A DNA stretch of 9,362 nt from Candidatus Odinarchaeota archaeon. Lineage in GTDB: Archaea > Asgardarchaeota > Odinarchaeia > Odinarchaeales > Odinarchaeaceae. Shown here one piece after another: positions 1 to 9,362 of the stretch. The stretch covers positions 1 to 9,362 of the forward strand of contig JAWBON010000047.1 in the NCBI GenBank assembly GCA_038826135.1. Reading direction: 5' to 3'. A program made the position numbers and the translations under genes. Position 1 is the first letter of the stretch. Each line of letters opens with the position of its first letter. The notes under the pieces are model-generated. The model was not told the origin of the DNA and did no database searches. It saw only the letters and a program-made list of their open reading frames with translations.

Positions 1-1529
1 AAATCTTTATGTCTTTTAAAGCTTCTAATCAGTTTATCATTTTCTTTAGAGGTAGCGTCGAATCTTTCAACAAACAATTTTTTATTTAACCTGTCTCCTA
101 TCCCGTAATCTAAAAGATCTTTAAGAACCTTGTATGAGGGAGTAAAAACACCTATATTCGCCGGTGTAGCGTCAACCGCCTCTGAAATTTTATCTATTAT
201 CTTATTGTAATTGCTTTCAACCCGCTGATTTAACGCGGTGCTAACACCTTCAACAATTAAAGCTAATACATTTTTTTTATCAAACGGTGATTTTAAAACA
301 GCTTGAACGGTTGAAGATGGTAACCCTGTAACGTCTATGAAGGCTTGTAGAGGTTGAATTGTTCCTGAAACAGATATCGTAGCATAGCACTGGCTGTAAA
401 TAATTCTAGTTATTCTTCTAGGGTCTAAAGCCACTATCTCTATTCTCGTATAGCTTCCACCGTCTCCTGTGAAATATTTTCTAATCACCTGGCAGTAGTC
501 TCTTCTTCCAACAGTATCCATCCAGTAAATTGTGAATTCTGCTAGTCGATGAATATAAGAGTGTGGCAGCTTTCCATCTGATATCATCAGTCTCTGAACC
601 GTCTCACCTTTTTCATGCATATCCTCCAAGAACCCCATCAGGTCACCGTAATCCGCTCCCCTCTGCAACGCGTCTTCAACAGTGTATTTTGGGACGAGTA
701 TCTCCTCCTCCTGACCTATTAAAGGTTCAAGTTCCTCGTATATTTTAAGAAATCTCTTGCAGAAAACTTTTATTTCACTTAACCTGTATTTTTCAGCTTC
801 ATTAATAGCTAATTTAATAGAGTTTTTAGACAGCGCGTCGCTTGATATGTTTAAAGCTATTTCAGGTAGGTTATGAGCTTCATCTAAAACAACTATTAGA
901 TCAGAGATTTTCCTCTTAAGATTGTTTAAAAAAAGTTCTCTAATATAAGGATTGAAAAGATACATGTAATTAGCAGCTATAATATTCACGTCCGGCAATA
1001 TTTTTTTAGCAAACTCGTAGGGGCATATTTCCAGTTTTCTACACACGCTGATTAATTCATCATTGCTTAAAGGGGTTGATAATGCAGCATTCTCCAATCT
1101 TTCATATAATCGGTTTCTCTCAACTAAATTAGTATAATATACGCATTTACCAAGCTTCTGAAGCTCTTTACACACGTTCATCGCAGAAGTCGGATCAGGG
1201 CAATATCTCCTCACAAACTGGTTGAAGCACATCTCCACTCTGCCTCTGAGAGAAACCCCTTTAACAGGCTTTCTTTTAGCGATGAGTTTAAGCTCGCTCA
1301 TAACCCGGTCTATCTGTTTATGTGTTCTAGCCAGATACACCACTGGGTGTTGTGAGCTTAAAGCACTAGGTAGCACACCTGACAGCAAACCAACTGTTTT
1401 ACCTAATCCGTTACAGCCTTCTATAACAGCGTGGCCGCCTTTACGCGATATCTCCCGAGCTATTTCTATAAGCTCTCTCTGACCCTCCCGGACACTCTCA
1501 TATGGGAAAAACTCATCTAAATCGATCAT
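1..1529 (-). CDS. xpd: XPD/Rad3/DinG-family SF2 5'-3' DNA helicase with 4Fe-4S domain (partial, runs off left edge)
   Basis: Hand translation from ATG at 1529 (in-frame TAA upstream at 1566-1568) is open for 509 codons to the window edge: MIDLDEFFPYESVREGQ... It shows Q motif (FPY...REGQ), Walker A EGCNGLGKT (37-45), motif Ia LARTHKQ, Fe-S cysteines C101/C120/C129/C169 (…EMCF…NVC…GKCVYY…ICPY), Walker B LDEAHN (215-220), motif III SGT (388-390) and motif IV GVFTPSY (460-466). It is absent from the ORF track because its stop lies outside the window. Confidence 0.93.
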   Translation of the reverse strand, partial: MIDLDEFFPYESVREGQRELIEIAREISRKGGHAVIEGCNGLGKTVGLLSGVLPSALSSQHPVVYLARTHKQIDRVMSELKLIAKRKPVKGVSLRGRVEMCFNQFVRRYCPDPTSAMNVCKELQKLGKCVYYTNLVERNRLYERLENAALSTPLSNDELISVCRKLEICPYEFAKKILPDVNIIAANYMYLFNPYIRELFLNNLKRKISDLIVVLDEAHNLPEIALNISSDALSKNSIKLAINEAEKYRLSEIKVFCKRFLKIYEELEPLIGQEEEILVPKYTVEDALQRGADYGDLMGFLEDMHEKGETVQRLMISDGKLPHSYIHRLAEFTIYWMDTVGRRDYCQVIRKYFTGDGGSYTRIEIVALDPRRITRIIYSQCYATISVSGTIQPLQAFIDVTGLPSSTVQAVLKSPFDKKNVLALIVEGVSTALNQRVESNYNKIIDKISEAVDATPANIGVFTPSYKVLKDLLDYGIGDRLNKKLFVERFDATSKENDKLIRSFKRHKD

Positions 1530-1748
1530 ATTCAACTCATCTTCATCCGAGCAGGAGTAACCTGTTTAATAGAATGCACCCCGTCTATTTCCAAAGTTTT
1601 TAATCACCCTAATTAATATATAGATGTTGCTGGCTTTTTAGAGAAACCATCACCCTTACCTGATTAGATTTTAAATTTCGGGAAGCGAAGGTAGCAAGTT
1701 ATAAATATCTCTTTTAAATAATTTAATTAGCGTCACATTAGTTAATGA

Positions 1749-1801: not shown

Positions 1802-4800
1802 ATGGGTTGGAAAATTGCGAGTTTCAGCGAAAATATTAGGGGTCTAATAAGCTTTAAGCGTGAGAAGTTTAAGCTTAAGAGTTTAATACTTTACATTTCA
1901 CTTATATCAATATTCTTAATAGCTTTATTCGTAAGATTAACACCAGCAGCCTACGAGGCGATATTGAAAGGCTTCGACCCTTACTTTCAATTCAGGCAAA
2001 CCCAGTATATAGTTGAAAACGGTTTTTCAGCATGGTTTAACTGGCATGACCCGTTCTCCTGGTATCCTTGGGGTAGAGATATACCTGCGAACAGTTATCC
2101 GGGTTTACCGTTCGCAGCTGCAGCTGTATATCTTTTTCTCACAGGAATCGGTTTACCGATCAATCTTTTAGAAATGTGTTGGGCTTGGCCGGCTTTTATG
2201 GGGGCTTTAACAACGATTGCAATGTATTTTCTAGGTAAAGAATTCGGGTCGAAGAAGGTTGGGCTTATCGCTGCTTTCTTCCTAGCTCTTATGCCCGCAT
2301 ATTTTCAGAGGACGATCGCCGGGTTCTTCGATAATGAGACTGTCGGTATACTTTTAATGGTTTTAACCACGTATTTTTACATAAGAGCTATTAAACGGGA
2401 ATCTGTGTTTTCAAGTCTTTTAAGCGGGCTGGCATTAGCTTATTTAACTATTACATGGGGTGCTAACATTTACTTCTTCTACCTGATACCTTTATCTAAC
2501 TTAATCTTTTTAATTCTTAAAAAATATAAGCCGTTTTATTTAATCCCCTATGCTTTAACAATCGGAATCCCGCTTTTAGTCGGATCCCAGATTCCCCTGC
2601 TCGGAGGAGCTAATATAATATTCAACGGAACCGGGATTATTTCGATAGGTGTGCTGGGGATCCTTGTATTATACGAGTTAATAGGCAGGTTTAGGAAATC
2701 CCCTACTTACGCTAAGATAAAACCTTATACGCTTCCTATAATAGGCGGGATTATAGGAGTTATAGCTCTCAGCGTAATCGTGCTCTATTTTATAGCTCAA
2801 ATTAATATAATATCCCCTATTATAGGGGTGGTCGCTAGTCTCCCTGCTAGATTTTTATCTATAATTAATCCTTTAGCTAGATCAGAGGTTTACTTGGTAG
2901 CCTCTGTAGGTGAGCACGCTGTCACCTCTTGGGGGGTATTCTACTACTATCTTTTCATCCCCATATTTCTATTCCCTGTGGGAATATACTTTGTTATCAA
3001 GCGTTTAGAAACCACGGATATACTTCTTTTAACTGCCTTAATCACGTCACTGTACTTTTCAGCCTCCATGATTAGATTACTGCTTGTTCTTGCACCTTTC
3101 ATCTGTTTATTCGCAGCTTACGGGCTTGTAAATGTTATGAAACCCTTCTCCTCTATAATAAGTAAGGAGACAATCACGGTATCGCTTAGGAAGAGACGGG
3201 TCAGTAAAACTGTTTCACGCGAATACAGTGTGATAGCGTTCGGAATAGTCTTCATTCTTTTAGCTGCGAATTTATGGCATGGAATAGACGTATCCCGGCA
3301 GTTCGCTCCCTCCGAGATGGTTGGTTTAGGTGTTTACTATGATTGGCAAGAGTCTTTTCAATGGATGAGAAATAACATAGGCACCGGTAGGGTGATCCTA
3401 TCATGGTGGGATTACGGTTACTGGATAACCGCTGTTGCTAATGAAACCACGTTGATGGATAACGGAACCTTTAATGAGACGCAGATTGCCATCCTCGGCT
3501 TAGCTTTAATGTCAGGGGAGGTTGAAGCTCTTAAAATAATGCGCCAATACGGTGTAGAATATGTTCTCGTTCACTTCGGATACTTTATACCCTCCCTCAG
3601 CGGTGATGAGGGTAAATGGATTTGGATGGTTAGAATAGCTTCAGACAACTATCCTGAAATCATAAATGAAAGCCAATACTATAATGCTACAGCAGGTAAA
3701 CCTACATCAAAATTCTTCGACAGTCTCATATACAAGTTACTATTCTATAAGGAGCCTGGATCATATGAGTTAGCATCCTACGTCAGTAATAGTATGGATA
3801 AGCTAGGTTATCCTAAATACCAGTCTTATCCTACAAGTCAGCGTTGGATGTTCATCGGAGCTGACAGTGATTACCCTGTTTTCAATGCAGCTTACATCTC
3901 ATCTCATAACCTGGTTAAATTATACAAAGTCGATTACACCATTCTCGACACATGGCTTGAAATAGTGAATACCACAGTTTACACTTTTCCAGATAAGACC
4001 TGCGCGCTAGTAACGGTTAGAAACAACGGTTCTGAACCCGTCACCGTTGACACATCCTCGTCTTCAATATTAATAAACGGGAGTAAGCTCTCCACTGTAG
4101 GAGGCTCAGCCCATGTGGCTGAAGGTTCAGCGTTAATGAACCCGGGGGAAACCTGTACTGTTAAAATAGATGTTAACTCAAACTCCACGGTTGGAACAGC
4201 TTTTAACACGACAATAAGGTCTGTGGAGTTTTACGGTTACCGTAAATCTTCAGATATAAACATTGTTAGAGCCGCAGGCTCTTTAAGCATATCTATTATT
4301 AACGCTACCGCTTACAGTAATGAGACAATATTTTTGAATGTTGAAAACACGGGTGATGAATACTTAACTGTAACCAAGATTTATGTTAACGGCTCATCGA
4401 GCGGTGTGAATATTCAAGGTGATTTAACTCTCGCTCCGGGGCAGGTTCAAATGTACACGCTTACCTTCAACCCTGTTAACTATCCTTCACTTAATCTTAA
4501 CGTATCGGATATAGTTAACATAAATATTTCCACATGGGAGGGGGTCTCCGATACTTTAACAGGTGTAGTGGTTCAAAGCCCGCCCGGCTATAATTTCACG
4601 GTAAGCGAGGTTAACGTATTCAGTAACGAGACTGTTTTATTCAACATGTTTAATAACGGCTCATACCCGCTGGGCATCTCTCATATAATATTATCTACTG
4701 GGATCGGTAGTGTAACATTTTACAGGTCCTCTATAACCGCTCTTAACGGAAGTTTAACAATTAATCCAGGTTCAACTATAAGATATAAAGTCGCTTGGGC

Positions 4801-5500
4801 GCCTTCTCTAATAGATTTAAACCAGACTGATATGGTTAACATAACAGTTTGCACATATGAAGGTCTAGAATACACAGTTCAGAATATTACTGTAACGGAA
4901 CCTGTAGGCTACGATTACACAGTTACAGGTCAAGTATATGATAATGAAACAGCTTACCTTACTGTAAGTAATAACGGGTCTTATCCTATAACTTTGAGAA
5001 CTGTTACCGCTAACGGCACGATTGTAAATACTATAACTCCCATCAACGGCTCAATGACATTAAACCCTGGTGTGGCTACCTTGTATAAGATTGTCTGGGA
5101 TCCGTTTATATTTAATGTGAGTGCAGGCGAGTACGTTGAGTTGAAGACTATAACCTTCCAGGATATTAACCGGACAATCTCATGCTTGGTAGAATCCTCA
5201 AATTACTCTATAATGATAGATCCATCTATAACATTTATCTACTCTAATAATACTATTTTTATCACTTTGAATAATACGAGCCCGTCTTTTTCAATTAATA
5301 ATCTCACTATACTCGTTGAAAACCAAACTTCCGGGGAGAGTCAATACTTAACGTGGACGGGTGTATTAAACACAGGCGAATCAGTAAATTTGAGTTTTAA
5401 TCTTGATGAGATGCCTTCTTTGAATGCTGGTGAAACACTGCGGGTTGCGGTGAAATCGGTTGAAAATGCAAGTTACCAGGTGCTAGAAACTGTATTATAA
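1802..5500 (+). CDS. aglB: Oligosaccharyltransferase catalytic subunit AglB/STT3 with long C-terminal tandem-repeat extension (1232 aa)
   Basis: Multi-pass hydrophobic N-terminal half followed by a soluble domain. STT3 motifs occur in canonical order: FDPY (D59), WYPWGR, FFDNE (177-179), SVGEH (E371), SMIRLLLVLAP (R425), WWDYG (535-539; nt 3404-3418), DNGTFN (553-558) and DK motif D602-x2-K605-x3-M609. LYKV at 707-710 ends the core. Confidence 0.97.
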   Translation: MGWKIASFSENIRGLISFKREKFKLKSLILYISLISIFLIALFVRLTPAAYEAILKGFDPYFQFRQTQYIVENGFSAWFNWHDPFSWYPWGRDIPANSYPGLPFAAAAVYLFLTGIGLPINLLEMCWAWPAFMGALTTIAMYFLGKEFGSKKVGLIAAFFLALMPAYFQRTIAGFFDNETVGILLMVLTTYFYIRAIKRESVFSSLLSGLALAYLTITWGANIYFFYLIPLSNLIFLILKKYKPFYLIPYALTIGIPLLVGSQIPLLGGANIIFNGTGIISIGVLGILVLYELIGRFRKSPTYAKIKPYTLPIIGGIIGVIALSVIVLYFIAQINIISPIIGVVASLPARFLSIINPLARSEVYLVASVGEHAVTSWGVFYYYLFIPIFLFPVGIYFVIKRLETTDILLLTALITSLYFSASMIRLLLVLAPFICLFAAYGLVNVMKPFSSIISKETITVSLRKRRVSKTVSREYSVIAFGIVFILLAANLWHGIDVSRQFAPSEMVGLGVYYDWQESFQWMRNNIGTGRVILSWWDYGYWITAVANETTLMDNGTFNETQIAILGLALMSGEVEALKIMRQYGVEYVLVHFGYFIPSLSGDEGKWIWMVRIASDNYPEIINESQYYNATAGKPTSKFFDSLIYKLLFYKEPGSYELASYVSNSMDKLGYPKYQSYPTSQRWMFIGADSDYPVFNAAYISSHNLVKLYKVDYTILDTWLEIVNTTVYTFPDKTCALVTVRNNGSEPVTVDTSSSSILINGSKLSTVGGSAHVAEGSALMNPGETCTVKIDVNSNSTVGTAFNTTIRSVEFYGYRKSSDINIVRAAGSLSISIINATAYSNETIFLNVENTGDEYLTVTKIYVNGSSSGVNIQGDLTLAPGQVQMYTLTFNPVNYPSLNLNVSDIVNINISTWEGVSDTLTGVVVQSPPGYNFTVSEVNVFSNETVLFNMFNNGSYPLGISHIILSTGIGSVTFYRSSITALNGSLTINPGSTIRYKVAWAPSLIDLNQTDMVNITVCTYEGLEYTVQNITVTEPVGYDYTVTGQVYDNETAYLTVSNNGSYPITLRTVTANGTIVNTITPINGSMTLNPGVATLYKIVWDPFIFNVSAGEYVELKTITFQDINRTISCLVESSNYSIMIDPSITFIYSNNTIFITLNNTSPSFSINNLTILVENQTSGESQYLTWTGVLNTGESVNLSFNLDEMPSLNAGETLRVAVKSVENASYQVLETVL
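3950..5497 (+). repeat. Five diverged protein-level tandem repeats (~97-110 aa) in the AglB C-terminus
   Basis: Approximate units are residues 717-826, 827-929, 930-1036, 1037-1133 and 1134-1232. Recurrent words are [YF]-[SD]-N-[EN]-T (units 2-5), N-[NT]-G-[SD]-x-P/Y (units 1-4), L-[TM]-[LI]-N/A-P-G-like (units 1-4; LNTG in unit 5) and T-[WY]-E-G (units 2-3). DNA-level identity is limited to short stretches (e.g. aataacggctcataccc vs aataacgggtcttatcc). Confidence 0.8.
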
Positions 5501-5721: not shown

Positions 5722-6519
5722 TTAACTAATTTTCTTCCAGTCCCCGTCTCCGCCTAGGCTTCTAATAGTTTTTAAAATCATGTTAGCTGAATTGGATAAT
5801 GCTTTTTCAGCTGTTTTATAATCCGGGGCTTCTATTTCAAACTGATATCTCGGAGACCCTAATAAGAATATTCGTCCTTTTACACCAGGTTCGTTTTCTA
5901 ATTCTTCAAGACCCTTCATAAGAGCGGTTTTTACCGCATCCACTCCGTCGGGTTTATAACAGGTGACGTCTATTTCAGCCAGCATTTTAACCGTCGGTAT
6001 TTCAACATGCTCTAACGCCTCCCGATATATTACATCCCGCCATGCGGCTGGTATCTTAGCTTCTTCAAGAGCAGCCACCCCGTTCTTTTTTACAGCTTGC
6101 AGACCCTTATATATTTCACCGTATGTGTCTTCCAGCCTCCAGCCCACCTCCTGGTAGGCTTCATCTATAGTTTTACCCAGTTTATCAGCTGCTAATTTAA
6201 GTATGCCCTCCGCGTTTTTAGCGCGTTTCCATGCTTGTATTTTCTCTTTTTTCTGCTGTTCAGTCACTCTTCTCAGGGAAAGATCGATTTGTTTTTTCTC
6301 CCTGTTCACTCTGAGAACTTTAGTAACTATTTTCTGCCCTTCTTTAACAAAGTTTCTTATATTCTTTATCCAGCTAGATGCTATTTCCGATAAGTGAACG
6401 AATCCTCTAAGCCCAGGATACTCCTCTAAATCAACATAGGCTCCATGAGAAGTAATGTCTGTTACAGTACATAAAAGCAGGTCGCCCTCTGAGGGCATCT
6501 CCCTCCTAGTTTTTACCAA
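5722..6519 (-). CDS. eif2a: Translation initiation factor 2 subunit alpha (aIF2-alpha), ~265 aa
   Basis: S1 domain (P.EGDL…V..I..HGAYV.L.EY…GFVHLSEIAS.WIKNIR…KVLRV…QIDLSLRRV), helical domain, and C-terminal domain with GSPRY. The start is placed at TTG 6519 (MVKTRREMPSEG) rather than 6534, because GGAGGT lies 7 nt upstream of 6519. Confidence 0.95.
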   Translation of the reverse strand: MVKTRREMPSEGDLLLCTVTDITSHGAYVDLEEYPGLRGFVHLSEIASSWIKNIRNFVKEGQKIVTKVLRVNREKKQIDLSLRRVTEQQKKEKIQAWKRAKNAEGILKLAADKLGKTIDEAYQEVGWRLEDTYGEIYKGLQAVKKNGVAALEEAKIPAAWRDVIYREALEHVEIPTVKMLAEIDVTCYKPDGVDAVKTALMKGLEELENEPGVKGRIFLLGSPRYQFEIEAPDYKTAEKALSNSANMILKTIRSLGGDGDWKKIS

Positions 6520-6526
6520 AACACTA

Positions 6527-6532
6527 ACCTCC
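6527..6532 (-). promoter_or_regulatory. Shine-Dalgarno site of aIF2-alpha
   Basis: GGAGGT on the minus strand, 7 nt upstream of TTG 6519. Confidence 0.65.
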
Positions 6533-6578
6533 AAAATATATTACTAACAGTTTACGTGCGGGAGGATAACATGAATTT

Positions 6579-6767
6579 CTATAGGACGGTTACTATTTTC
6601 GTTTTAAATCTGGTTTTACCACCAGTAGGCTCCGCTATCACTCGACCGCATGTTTCGCATTTAACCTCAGTTGCTGCGCATCCGAACACAATCTGCTCTG
6701 AGCCGCAGTCTAAGCATTTAACTTTTAAGAATTTACTTTTAGGTTCAGGTATTTTCTCCTTAACCAA
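6579..6767 (-). CDS. rps27e: 30S ribosomal protein S27e (62 aa)
   Basis: IPEPKSKFLKVKCLDCGSEQIVF…VKCETCGRVIAEPTGGK is the S27e signature with both CxxC pairs. TTG start. Confidence 0.96.
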   Translation of the reverse strand: MVKEKIPEPKSKFLKVKCLDCGSEQIVFGCAATEVKCETCGRVIAEPTGGKTRFKTKIVTVL

Positions 6768-6772
6768 ATAAG

Positions 6773-6779
6773 ATCACCT
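6773..6779 (-). promoter_or_regulatory. Shine-Dalgarno site of rps27e
   Basis: AGGTGAT on the minus strand, 5 nt upstream of TTG 6767. Confidence 0.7.
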
Positions 6780-6783
6780 TAAT

Positions 6784-7059
6784 TTAGGCAAACTCTAATT
6801 TTTTAAGCCTCATACCTTTCCGCTGAATAACGTAGCCGCACTCCTTACACTTATATTTTAACAGCTGTTTCTTAGTTGTTTTAGCAAATTTTTTCTGGAT
6901 TGGTTTAGGTTGACTACCGTATCCTGCTTTCTTCCTAGCGTATCTTCTAGCACCCTCTGATAACGGGCTGTCCCTACCCTTCTTATATAATGCAACTGTA
7001 TGCTCGGTGTGAGTTTTACATTTAGGACAGTATGTGTTAACCGTTTTTACCATTCTCAT
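6784..7059 (-). CDS. rpl44e: 50S ribosomal protein L44e (eL42), 91 aa
   Basis: TYCPKCKTHTEHTV..YKKG….L..G.RRY.RK..GYGSQPKP…K.AKTTKK..LKYKCKECG is the L44e signature with zinc-finger cysteines. The start overlaps the gins15 3' end by 23 nt. Confidence 0.96.
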   Translation of the reverse strand: MRMVKTVNTYCPKCKTHTEHTVALYKKGRDSPLSEGARRYARKKAGYGSQPKPIQKKFAKTTKKQLLKYKCKECGYVIQRKGMRLKKLEFA

Positions 7060-7534
7060 ATTTTCTACCCCACATTATTTCAACAGCAGCGTTTCTTTTA
7101 ATAAGTGCGAGTGCGTTTTTAACCGGTAGTGTGGCCACATCCTCGGCGTTGAAAGGCCCGTAGTTTTGCAGGTCTGAACCTACAATGGTAGGAATTGATT
7201 GCAGTAATCGAATTATTAAATATTTCGGTTCATGACTCTCGCTTTCTAAATGTTTCCTGCTGTTATCCTCCGGATTTAAATTCACCGTTTCCCTGTCTAG
7301 TTTAGTGCTTTCAACGCGGCTTTTATGATTAGTTTCTTCTTCAAAATATTCTACCAGTAATTTAAGATTGGCTATTTTCCGTTCACATATTTTTTTGACT
7401 ATAGGCGTCTTAGCTTCTAATGCGCTTTGAAGAGATTTTAAATATTCTATTATTTTATTTTTAATTTCGCTTTCTACCTTACCGTCGTTTTTAACTTTGG
7501 CCGCCATCCAAGCCCTATATATTTCATCATACAT
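7037..7534 (-). CDS. gins15: GINS complex subunit, Gins15/Gins51 type (A-B domain order), 165 aa
   Basis: The C-terminal B domain YLIIRLLQSIPTIVGSDLQNYGPFNAEDVATLPVKNALALIKRNAAVEI (105-153) is typical of Gins15. The N-terminus is helical. It lies between priS and rpl44e, its established archaeal context. GGGGAG is present upstream (7545-7550). Confidence 0.85.
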   Translation of the reverse strand: MYDEIYRAWMAAKVKNDGKVESEIKNKIIEYLKSLQSALEAKTPIVKKICERKIANLKLLVEYFEEETNHKSRVESTKLDRETVNLNPEDNSRKHLESESHEPKYLIIRLLQSIPTIVGSDLQNYGPFNAEDVATLPVKNALALIKRNAAVEIMWGRKYENGKNG

Positions 7535-7565
7535 TATTATTCAACTCCCCTGATCTAGAAAATGG

Positions 7566-7579
7566 TTTAAATATATTTA
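7566..7579 (-). promoter_or_regulatory. Candidate internal promoter (TATA-like) upstream of gins15
   Basis: The 50-bp priS-gins15 spacer holds an AT-only tract, TAAATATATTTAAA on the minus strand, 32-45 bp upstream of ATG 7534. It includes the 12-bp palindrome TAAATATATTTA (7568-7579). Confidence 0.35.
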
Positions 7580-7584
7580 TTATG

Positions 7585-8853
7585 TTAAGTGCTCTGAGAT
7601 ATTATTTCCGCAACGTTTTTACATGCGAGGAACACTCCCACGCTCGTAGGGAGCTCGGCAACTTCATTGTAGAAGGGCCCGTATGAGGAATCGTTTATCA
7701 CTATTCTGGGAGCCCTGTTTATTTTAACTTTCACATAGCCTTTAAAAACCTGTGAGTCCTTCAACGGGTTGAATTCTTCTAATTCCTCTCTTGTAAGAAG
7801 CTGGGTTTTAAACCCGGTTTTACCGTTAAGGGAGTTAGGGAGTCGTATAAGCCTATGGATGTCTGCTGTTACCGGTTCATCTATTTTACCAGCGTAAAGC
7901 TTGATAGCGGCTTCAATTATTTTCCCCCAATCGTTTATCTTAAGTTTAGCCAGATCCCAGCTGATACCGTTTACGCCGGGTATTCGTGTATCCTTTAATG
8001 ATAGGCTGGTTACTAGGAAGTCTCTGTTATCTAATAATATTTTTCTTTTAGGTTTATTGAATCCTATACTGGTAAGCGCTTTTTCATCAGTTTCTGATAG
8101 GAATCTTGAAACATACCTGTTTATTCTACCCCGCCAACCGTAATCGTCTGATTTAGGGCCGACTATTATCCTCCCAGGTATTTGTATAAGACCGTGGAAC
8201 TCCGGGGTCACACCGTTTCCAGTAATATAGTCGATTAACTCTTTTCTAGCGTTAGCGTCTAATGTTTTAATTTTATCATCCTCTACGTGAATATGGTAGC
8301 CTCTATGCCCTGAAAAAGCGAGGAATATTTTAGCCGGGTCTAAACTTAGATCTGATATTAGGAACTCATCTAGTACCTTAATTATTTCTTTTTTCGCAGT
8401 GTTCAAGCAATCACGGCATATCCAGGTGATTTTAGAAATATCTTTATTACCGCACTTCGGACAGCCTGCAGGGGGATCTCCTTTACCTTCAGCCTTACAT
8501 TTACTGCAGATCCAGATGTCATGCTCTTTTTTGCATGCAGTGTCTAAGTGATCAGCGTCTACATCAAATATTAGATCACATCCAGTCCAGTTTTTTCCCG
8601 TCATATCCGGAGCTGCAGGGTTTGTATAATATGCAGCTGAGTGATAGCAGTCGGAGGGGCCTAGCCTTTTACAGAAATCGATTAACTGTTTTAAATCTTC
8701 AAAAACTATGTGTCTGAGAAAATTAGGGTTATCGAAGAATAGGAACCCCCACTCTCTCCTAGCCGGTTTATCGACTTTAAACTCTTCAAATGTTATTTTT
8801 GAATAATATTCCTGGAATTTACTTCTTAGAAATATTCTTGTTTCCTCATCTAT
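7585..8853 (-). CDS. priS: DNA primase small (catalytic) subunit PriS, ~422 aa if started at ATA 8853
   Basis: AEP motifs are DLIFDVDADH (DxD at nt 8557-8565), FSGHRGYHIHV and VTADIHRLIRLPNSLNGKTG. The frame stays open 83 codons upstream of the ORF-track ATG (8604) and encodes conserved PriS N-terminal words (TRIFLRSKFQEYY, RREWGF, LRH, YHSAAYYTNP). The product identity is secure; the start codon is inferred. Confidence 0.93.
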   Translation of the reverse strand: MDEETRIFLRSKFQEYYSKITFEEFKVDKPARREWGFLFFDNPNFLRHIVFEDLKQLIDFCKRLGPSDCYHSAAYYTNPAAPDMTGKNWTGCDLIFDVDADHLDTACKKEHDIWICSKCKAEGKGDPPAGCPKCGNKDISKITWICRDCLNTAKKEIIKVLDEFLISDLSLDPAKIFLAFSGHRGYHIHVEDDKIKTLDANARKELIDYITGNGVTPEFHGLIQIPGRIIVGPKSDDYGWRGRINRYVSRFLSETDEKALTSIGFNKPKRKILLDNRDFLVTSLSLKDTRIPGVNGISWDLAKLKINDWGKIIEAAIKLYAGKIDEPVTADIHRLIRLPNSLNGKTGFKTQLLTREELEEFNPLKDSQVFKGYVKVKINRAPRIVINDSSYGPFYNEVAELPTSVGVFLACKNVAEIISQST

Positions 8854-9362
8854 TTTCTTTCACCAATTTCTTTCTGTTATAGTATCTTAATGGATGTGAT
8901 ATTTTACTGCATGTTTCATCCATATTTGAACATAATGAATATGTTTTCAATGTTTTACATGATGGTGGAGTGTATCTTGGTTTACTTGCATCTTTGCCTT
9001 TTATATGCTCTATTTGATATCTTGTTAATTTTTCATTGAAATCAGGCGCCGCTTTGAATAATTCAATAATTTCATCCTCGCTCATACCTATGTTTAATAG
9101 AAAAGATGTGAGTGTAAATCTGCCTTGATGTGATATGTTTTCTCCTAGTAATATTTTTGTTAAGAGTTCGCGGATGCAAGGCGGGAACGCTTCTTTTCTT
9201 ATAGGCCCTTCTATTTTAGTGTCTGGGAAACCTATGTTCTTCTTTAACTTCACCCAATCTGCTTTTAAATATTCAATAAGGCCTAGGAAACTATTATCCA
9301 ACTCTTTTAAATCGGGTTTAACAAGTTTTCTTGAGGCTAAATCTAATCTAACTCTCTCACTT
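8846..9362 (-). CDS. priL: DNA primase large subunit PriL, C-terminal 4Fe-4S domain (partial, starts beyond right edge)
   Basis: The frame is open from the right edge (…SERVRLDLASRKLVKPDLKELDNSF…), so TTG 9301 is not the true start. It contains FPPCI, HQGRFTLTSFLLNIG, PDFNEKLTRYQIEHI, YTPPSCKTLKTYSLC…C…HPLRYY with four Fe-S cysteines. Confidence 0.93.
   Translation of the reverse strand, partial: SERVRLDLASRKLVKPDLKELDNSFLGLIEYLKADWVKLKKNIGFPDTKIEGPIRKEAFPPCIRELLTKILLGENISHQGRFTLTSFLLNIGMSEDEIIELFKAAPDFNEKLTRYQIEHIKGKDASKPRYTPPSCKTLKTYSLCSNMDETCSKISHPLRYYNRKKLVKENR
8860..8864 (-). promoter_or_regulatory. Shine-Dalgarno-like site for priS inside the priL 3' end
   Basis: GGTGA on the minus strand, 6 nt upstream of ATA 8853. 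It matches the GGTGAT-type SD seen before rps27e. Confidence 0.5.

Follow-up and report, generated by a model that had tools for sequence, protein, structure and literature searches.

A conserved ATA is the probable initiation codon of the primase gene priS in Odinarchaeia

At which codon does translation of priS begin, when the part of the gene that codes for the conserved N-terminus contains none of the usual start codons? The question is raised by a contig of a hot-spring Candidatus Odinarchaeota archaeon (C47, JAWBON010000047.1), on which priS, the gene for the catalytic small subunit of DNA primase, directly follows priL, the gene for the large subunit. The window analysed here is this entire contig of 9,362 bp; it belongs to a metagenome-assembled genome (MAG) of 1.26 Mb that is 93 per cent complete (G000 below). 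An earlier note on this DNA had proposed that priS starts at an ATA codon (8853) behind a Shine–Dalgarno (SD)-like GGTGA and is coupled to priL termination; recoding at the junction or a sequence error were its alternatives. The comparative data favour the ATA as the start, and we consider it likely that priS is translated by SD-directed initiation at AUA 8853.

The organization of the junction is given in table 1. The priS frame is closed upstream by a TGA (8862–8860, reverse strand) that itself lies inside the GGTGA motif (8864–8860). Over the 86 codons from 8859 to ATG 8604, the frame contains no other ATG and no GTG, TTG or CTG, and the ATA stands 6 nt after GGTGA; a start there would overlap priL by 8 nt. 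All of these features were confirmed in the sequence, as was a mini-ORF (8849–8826) in the third frame, which in our judgement is incidental, arising from the D/N-E codons together with the priL stop. On composition alone, the chance of 83 codons with no canonical start is about 3.6 per cent. The length of the run is unremarkable; the key point is that a start codon is absent at the conserved N-terminus in every close relative. Two other ways of opening the frame were rejected. Reading TGA 8862 as a sense codon adds just eight codons (GAT ACT ATA ACA GAA AGA AAT TGG), none of them a start, ahead of a TAA, and the SD-like motif GAGGA in front of a second ATA, at 8835, is not kept in G002, a closed genome of the same genus.

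The identity of the gene is clear. The frame from 8859 matches the Pfam family PF01896 (PriS; E = 6.4e-20), includes the acidic DxD motif within DVDADH, and matches the solved PriS structures 1zt2 (E = 1.5e-29), 1g71 and 1v33. Residues 1–83 align with the solved catalytic domain of Sulfolobus solfataricus PriS, beginning at residue 13 of the latter, and contain 12 columns that do not vary among ten Asgard lineages, the REWGF strand or motif being part of them; the codons that lack a start thus encode conserved PriS sequence, as had been claimed. The partner PriL (PF04104) is encoded immediately upstream, and its full-length homologues in relatives have 359–368 aa.

Standard gene callers had been expected to truncate PriS by 83 aa, and this is what the databases contain: the public protein P0003, of 339 aa, starts at the position of ATG 8604. 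The public PriS proteins of relatives have 339 (96% identical), 392, 392, 392 and 358 aa. Of the six closest public PriS entries (55–96% identical), one, with 426 aa, has been given an in-frame GTG as its start, and the other five are truncated: they are devoid of 30–83 N-terminal residues that belong to the catalytic fold. Among these five is the entry from the closed genome, since in that genome of Ca. Odinarchaeum yellowstonii, PriS is annotated as a 392-aa ‘hypothetical protein’.

The junction was compared with those of three further species of the same genus (G001, G002 and G003) and of three more distant Odinarchaeia loci (L104, L105 and L106), which were retrieved through their short public PriS proteins. 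PriS identity to the query is about 76 per cent in the other species of the genus, 70 per cent in L104, 62 per cent in L106 and 55 per cent in L105. All four genus genomes, including the closed G002 (1,418,269 bp), read GGTGA, a 6-nt spacer, ATA and then [G/A]ATGA, and their first canonical priS codon is codon 21, 33, 33 or 85. The spacer is constant in length and variable in its letters among species (AAGAAA, AAAAAA, AGAAAA and GAGAAA). A contig from a second, independent hot-spring sample spans 8700–8886 with no indel; this check used Logan contigs, i.e. assembled sequence rather than single reads. Because four genus genomes and the contig of the independent sample share this junction, with neither an indel nor an ATG at the site, a sequencing or assembly error is ruled out, and with it the 1-nt error that the earlier note had allowed for.

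Across the seven Odinarchaeia lineages, the ATA is invariant in three to four differing junction architectures. GGTGA is kept in five of the lineages, and L106 has GGAGG at the equivalent register. L104 keeps GGTGA-GAGAAA-ATA; its priL is 30 nt longer (AAT AGA CCT ... TAA), the two genes overlap by 35 nt, and at the site there is neither a priL stop nor an ATGA, the ATG of the mini-ORF being absent (ATAGACCTA). In L106, priL ends with ...GGA GGC GAA TAA and priS follows in the same frame (AAA ATA AAC...), with a gap of 3 nt before the ATA. The GGAGG of L106 precedes the ATA at the aligned spacing of 6, the mini-ORF ATG is again absent, and the leader is a single codon, so that the ATA is the sole near-cognate codon. 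In L104 and L106, just one or two sense codons stand ahead of the ATA in frame, and the ATA is the only near-cognate codon that they have in common. L105 reads AAG GTG AGA GAA ATA; its GTG is in the priS frame and overlaps the priL stop as GTGA, and GGTGA-N5-ATA is also present. A register change of 1 nt (L105:1495–1515) may have shifted the start from GTG to ATA or the reverse; in the genus, the GTG of GGTGA is in the priL frame and lies 7 nt rather than 6 from the ATA.

Beyond these lineages, the ATA column aligns exactly with the ATG start of priS in the Asgard lineages L013 and L017. The alignment of these two lineages places a canonical start exactly where the earlier note had put the ATA, and the GGTGA-N6-ATA arrangement is found in the four genus genomes and in L104. 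In the sister family priS starts at an ATG two residues later, and in other lineages at TTG or GTG. A metagenome scan for further Odinarchaeia junctions returned just one 5'-truncated fragment and distant lineages, and a scan of genome contigs yielded no additional junctions. In the aligned sequences the frame relation and the overlap vary by lineage, and the unit formed by the SD and the ATA persists. Recoding would thus need to be reinvented in each lineage; initiation at the ATA would explain all of them.

The SD has the properties expected of a functional site in this genus. The 3' end of 16S rRNA, read from the genus relatives since none was found in the MAG itself, is GGATCACCTCCT, complementary to GGTGA. 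For a genome-wide comparison, the closed genome G002 was joined from 71 stretches and its stop-to-stop frames were paired with those of G000 by reciprocal best BLASTP, which gave 1,042 non-shadow pairs, each of at least 120 codons. At the 202 ATG starts that are both conserved and confident, the aligned SD spacing has a mode of 6 and a range of 3–8; that of priS is 6. The genome encodes the fidelity factor aIF1/SUI1, and so tolerance of unusual start codons is not caused by the loss of this factor. No tRNA-Met (CAU) was called by aragorn in G000 or G002, even with intron detection, among the 31–34 tRNAs called; the missing CAU calls are probably due to introns in the tRNA genes. These genes appear heavily intron-interrupted in both genomes, and the aragorn tRNA set is unreliable.

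Initiation at the ATA could proceed as follows. GGUGA would pair with the 3' end of 16S rRNA and position the small ribosomal subunit so that the AUA, 6 nt downstream, comes to lie in the P site, where the initiator Met-tRNA would read it with a mismatch at the third position. The predicted product is a separate PriS of 422 residues with the N-terminus M-D-E-E-T-R-I-F-L; we infer both the initiation at AUA 8853 and the methionine as first residue. SD-directed AUA and AUU starts have been experimentally established in Staphylococcus aureus, where they give about 10 per cent of the output of AUG (PMC13009471). By analogy, the AUA is a weak initiator that probably limits PriS synthesis and holds it low relative to an AUG start. 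In the genus only, the nearby priL stop, with its 8-nt overlap, may contribute re-initiating ribosomes.

Several points weigh against initiation at AUA. Only AUG, GUG and UUG are given as start codons in reviews of initiation in archaea (PMC7531240). The SD lies inside the coding sequence of priL (L-V-K), and its conservation could partly reflect that of the protein. The seven lineages are few and related, and in one of them, L105, the in-frame GTG three codons upstream of the ATA may be the start instead. There is also an A-rich run at the junction, which reaches A8 in G002 and G003, and low-level slippage within it is possible. The reading rests on sequence comparison, and the organism is uncultured.

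Of the other explanations, dependence on priL comes first. In its strict form, initiation would depend wholly on ribosomes that terminate at the priL stop, the SD and the identity of the codon being secondary, which we regard as improbable. The short distances in the genus (overlap of 8 nt) and in L106 (gap of 3 nt) speak for such termination–reinitiation, and coupling of this kind has been demonstrated in archaea (PMC6728339). As in the archaeal ATGA/TGATG systems (PMC6728339, PMC10666635), priL and priS encode one heteromeric complex, overlap by a few nucleotides in the genus and have the SD in the upstream gene; unlike in these systems, the start is ATA, the conserved ATGA is in the wrong frame, and the length of the overlap is not conserved. 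As far as one of these sources describes it, coupling requires overlaps or very short distances (PMC10666635), and the ATA of L104 precedes the priL stop by 35 nt. Furthermore, both the SD and its spacing are conserved. The coupling to priL termination proposed earlier is thus possible in the genus and is not a conserved feature, the overlap changing from 8 to 35 nt and to a gap among the relatives.

A programmed +1 frameshift near GTG AAA GAA AAT AGA TGA, or transcriptional slippage in the A-run, would produce a PriL–PriS fusion and no free PriS. The genus and L104 do have priS in the +1 frame relative to priL, and all of them offer an AAA_A or AAA_G for a possible re-pairing of tRNA-Lys; G002 and G003 have an A8 run. 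However, the +1 relation is not kept, although the SD–ATA unit is: priL and priS of L106 are in the same frame, separated by a TAA, so that a +1 frameshift cannot apply there, and L105 shows yet another relation. L104 has no priL stop near the site, and the possible slip sites occupy different positions in different species. The arrangement recalls prfB in its downstream frame (+1), its upstream SD and its zero-frame stop; it differs in having neither a conserved shift site nor a conserved frame relation, and its SD is 9–12 nt from the priL stop, unlike the 3 nt of prfB. No protein of at least 743 aa matched PriS at E ≤ 1e-20, so that no relative with priL and priS fused in one frame was found among proteins of this size, which is weak evidence. 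Other near-cognate starts in the genome (see below) have no upstream gene to shift from. We consider such a fusion very unlikely.

Even less probable in our view is that PriS is made only from ATG 8604 or another downstream codon, the 83 upstream codons being a relic, a pseudogene or an assembly error. A downstream start is the output of the gene callers, and the start-less run has the modest composition-only chance given above. Against this, the 83 codons are conserved as protein in Asgard lineages and align with S. solfataricus PriS, the position of the first canonical codon shifts from relative to relative, and both a closed genome and independent assemblies carry this junction. Finally, a start at ATG 8849, followed by a –1 shift at U_UUC_UAA into the priS frame, is scarcely conceivable: all four genus genomes contain the ATGA motif and three have T_TTC followed by a stop, but the slip site is missing from G001, which reads TAT TCC TAA, the ATG is missing from the equivalent site of L104 and L106, and the D-E-E-T-R codons of the priS frame, which precede the supposed shift, change as coding sequence does, at synonymous third positions.

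SD-directed initiation at near-cognate codons, as proposed for priS, appears to extend to other genes of this genome. Of the 1,042 pairs, 43 have a protein alignment that begins 10 or more residues ahead of the first canonical codon of both genomes; part of these pairs are artefacts, e.g. rRNA or tRNA regions. We analysed columns with identical codons that in both G000 and G002 precede every canonical start by four codons or more, and asked for a conserved SD 5 nt or longer at a spacing of 4–8. Such an SD precedes 10 of 108 near-cognate codons and 8 of 512 other codons (odds ratio 6.4, Fisher p = 2e-4), and several of the eight ‘other’ matches merely adjoin a near-cognate match. About nine SD-led near-cognate starts are supported (table 1), three of them in genes of DNA replication or repair (priS, radA and hel308). 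For radA, the first canonical codon in G002 is at frame position 91. In the 182-aa gene of contig C10, a TAA immediately precedes the ATA in G002, so that no upstream frame can feed this start. Several of the genes have no overlapping upstream gene, and frameshifting cannot explain those. Candidates with a weaker SD are cinA (ATC), hemK/mtq2 (ATA), moaA (ATA) and two more genes with ATA. The capacity to start at near-cognate codons thus appears, from these comparisons, to be a property of the organism.

Two further frames lack a canonical start over a long distance. The first (contig C79, 1183–2097, forward strand; 304 codons) has an orthologue in G002 (166605–167499, reverse strand; 83% identical) and goes 291 codons (81 in G002) without an ATG, GTG or TTG; the frame begins directly behind GGTGA, and no near-cognate codon is found at SD spacing. 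The second, an isopropylmalate/homocitrate synthase-like gene (contig C4, 23155–24699, reverse strand), is extended at its N-terminus by a conserved sequence (WRGGI.FSF..LPEK), and its frame runs for 122 codons (53 in G002) before any canonical start appears. Its sole conserved candidate ATA abuts GGAGGA, an abnormal spacing, and a second ATA in G000 is GTC in G002.

Table 1. Features of the priL–priS junction, neighbouring genes in the window, and SD-led near-cognate starts in the genome (C, contig).
Feature	Position	Strand	Evidence or remark
priL (primase large subunit), C-terminal part, cut by contig end	8846..9362	-	Pfam PF04104, E = 5.7e-33
priL stop TGA	8848-8846	-	priL end reads ...AAT AGA TGA
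Shine–Dalgarno GGTGA	8860..8864	-	inside priL codons L-V-K; its TGA closes the priS frame
SD-to-start spacer AAGAAA, 6 nt	8854..8859	-	sole two priS-frame codons preceding ATA
ATA, proposed priS initiation codon	8851..8853	-	invariant in 7 Odinarchaeia lineages; aligns with ATG of L013, L017
mini-ORF MRKQEYF*, 7 codons, third frame	8826..8849	-	opens at ATG 8849, ATGA overlap with priL stop
ATG, first canonical codon in priS frame	8602..8604	-	position used by gene callers; omits 83 codons
priS coding sequence as proposed, 422 codons + stop	7585..8853	-	open frame; PF01896; solved PriS structures
gins51	7037-7534	-	Pfam match
ribosomal protein L44e	6784-7059	-	Pfam match
S27e	6579-6767	-	Pfam match
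aIF2-alpha	5722-6534	-	Pfam match
priS, start ATA	C47 (window)		SD-led, conserved G000/G002
HIT-family gene, start ATA	C39:9037-9531	-	SD-led, conserved G000/G002; Pfam
unnamed 182-aa gene, start ATA	C10:14289-14837	+	SD-led, conserved G000/G002
hel308, start ATA	C9:14167-16386	-	SD-led, conserved G000/G002; Pfam
radA, start ATT	C25:3105-4130	+	SD-led, conserved G000/G002; Pfam
133-aa gene, start ATT	C1:40280-40681	-	SD-led, conserved G000/G002
HisH-like amidotransferase (GATase), start CTG	C18:7696-8307	-	SD-led, conserved G000/G002; Pfam
ClC channel, start ACG	C72:2672-4411	-	SD-led, conserved G000/G002; Pfam
GNAT acetyltransferase, start ACG	C31:6282-7010	-	SD-led, conserved G000/G002; Pfam

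The gene order PCNA-priL-priS-gins51-L44e-S27e-aIF2alpha is found in L104, L105 and L106, and the window carries it from priL onward (5722–9362, reverse strand). This cluster, which joins genes of replication and translation, is kept across Odinarchaeia. The rest of the window codes for an XPD-like helicase with DEAD_2 and HBB domains (3–1535, reverse strand), cut by the contig end, and for an STT3/AglB oligosaccharyltransferase of 1,232 aa (1802–5500, forward strand) whose long C-terminal part has a weak Ig-like match.

Translation table 11 of NCBI lists ATA, ATT, ATC and CTG as alternative initiators, and the ATA of priS is thus already among its possible prokaryotic initiators. In Escherichia coli, infC and pcnB start at AUU. 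AUA and AUU starts are also known in S. aureus, for infC (AUA), ccpN (AUA), cvfC1 (AUU) and citZ (AUA) (PMC13009471). Like these bacterial genes, priS has a near-cognate AUN codon behind a well-placed SD, conserved in related species and missed by gene callers, and an attenuated translation would be expected by analogy with S. aureus. It differs from them in belonging to an Asgard archaeon with initiation factors of the eukaryotic type (aIF1 is present), in its SD of 5 nt, which is not extended, and in coding for an essential replication enzyme within an overlapping operon; moreover, the bacterial starts were proven experimentally, whereas that of priS is proposed from the comparison of sequences. 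In archaea, near-cognate sites seen by ribosome profiling of Haloferax volcanii were set aside and not pursued (PMC7261190). A literature search for Odinarchaeota together with start codon returned nothing relevant.

The comparison of related genomes suggests that priS, an essential gene of replication, starts at AUA; the case is clean and has phylogenetic support. The truncated public PriS entries, if expressed or modelled as annotated, would give a crippled protein. The weak start codon of the catalytic subunit, placed directly after priL, may be a way to set the PriS:PriL ratio. These observations also suggest a systematic mis-annotation of Asgard proteomes, from which the origin of eukaryotes is reconstructed, by gene callers that accept only ATG, GTG and TTG. 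We tentatively propose, as an idea that is at present rather less than probable, that Odinarchaeia, and possibly Asgard archaea in general, have a relaxed start-codon stringency, with at least 1 per cent of genes, among them priS, radA and hel308 of DNA replication and repair, using SD-led AUA, AUU, CUG or ACG as a conserved low-expression setting. If true, the relaxed initiation of Asgard archaea would be the prokaryotic counterpart of near-cognate initiation in eukaryotes.

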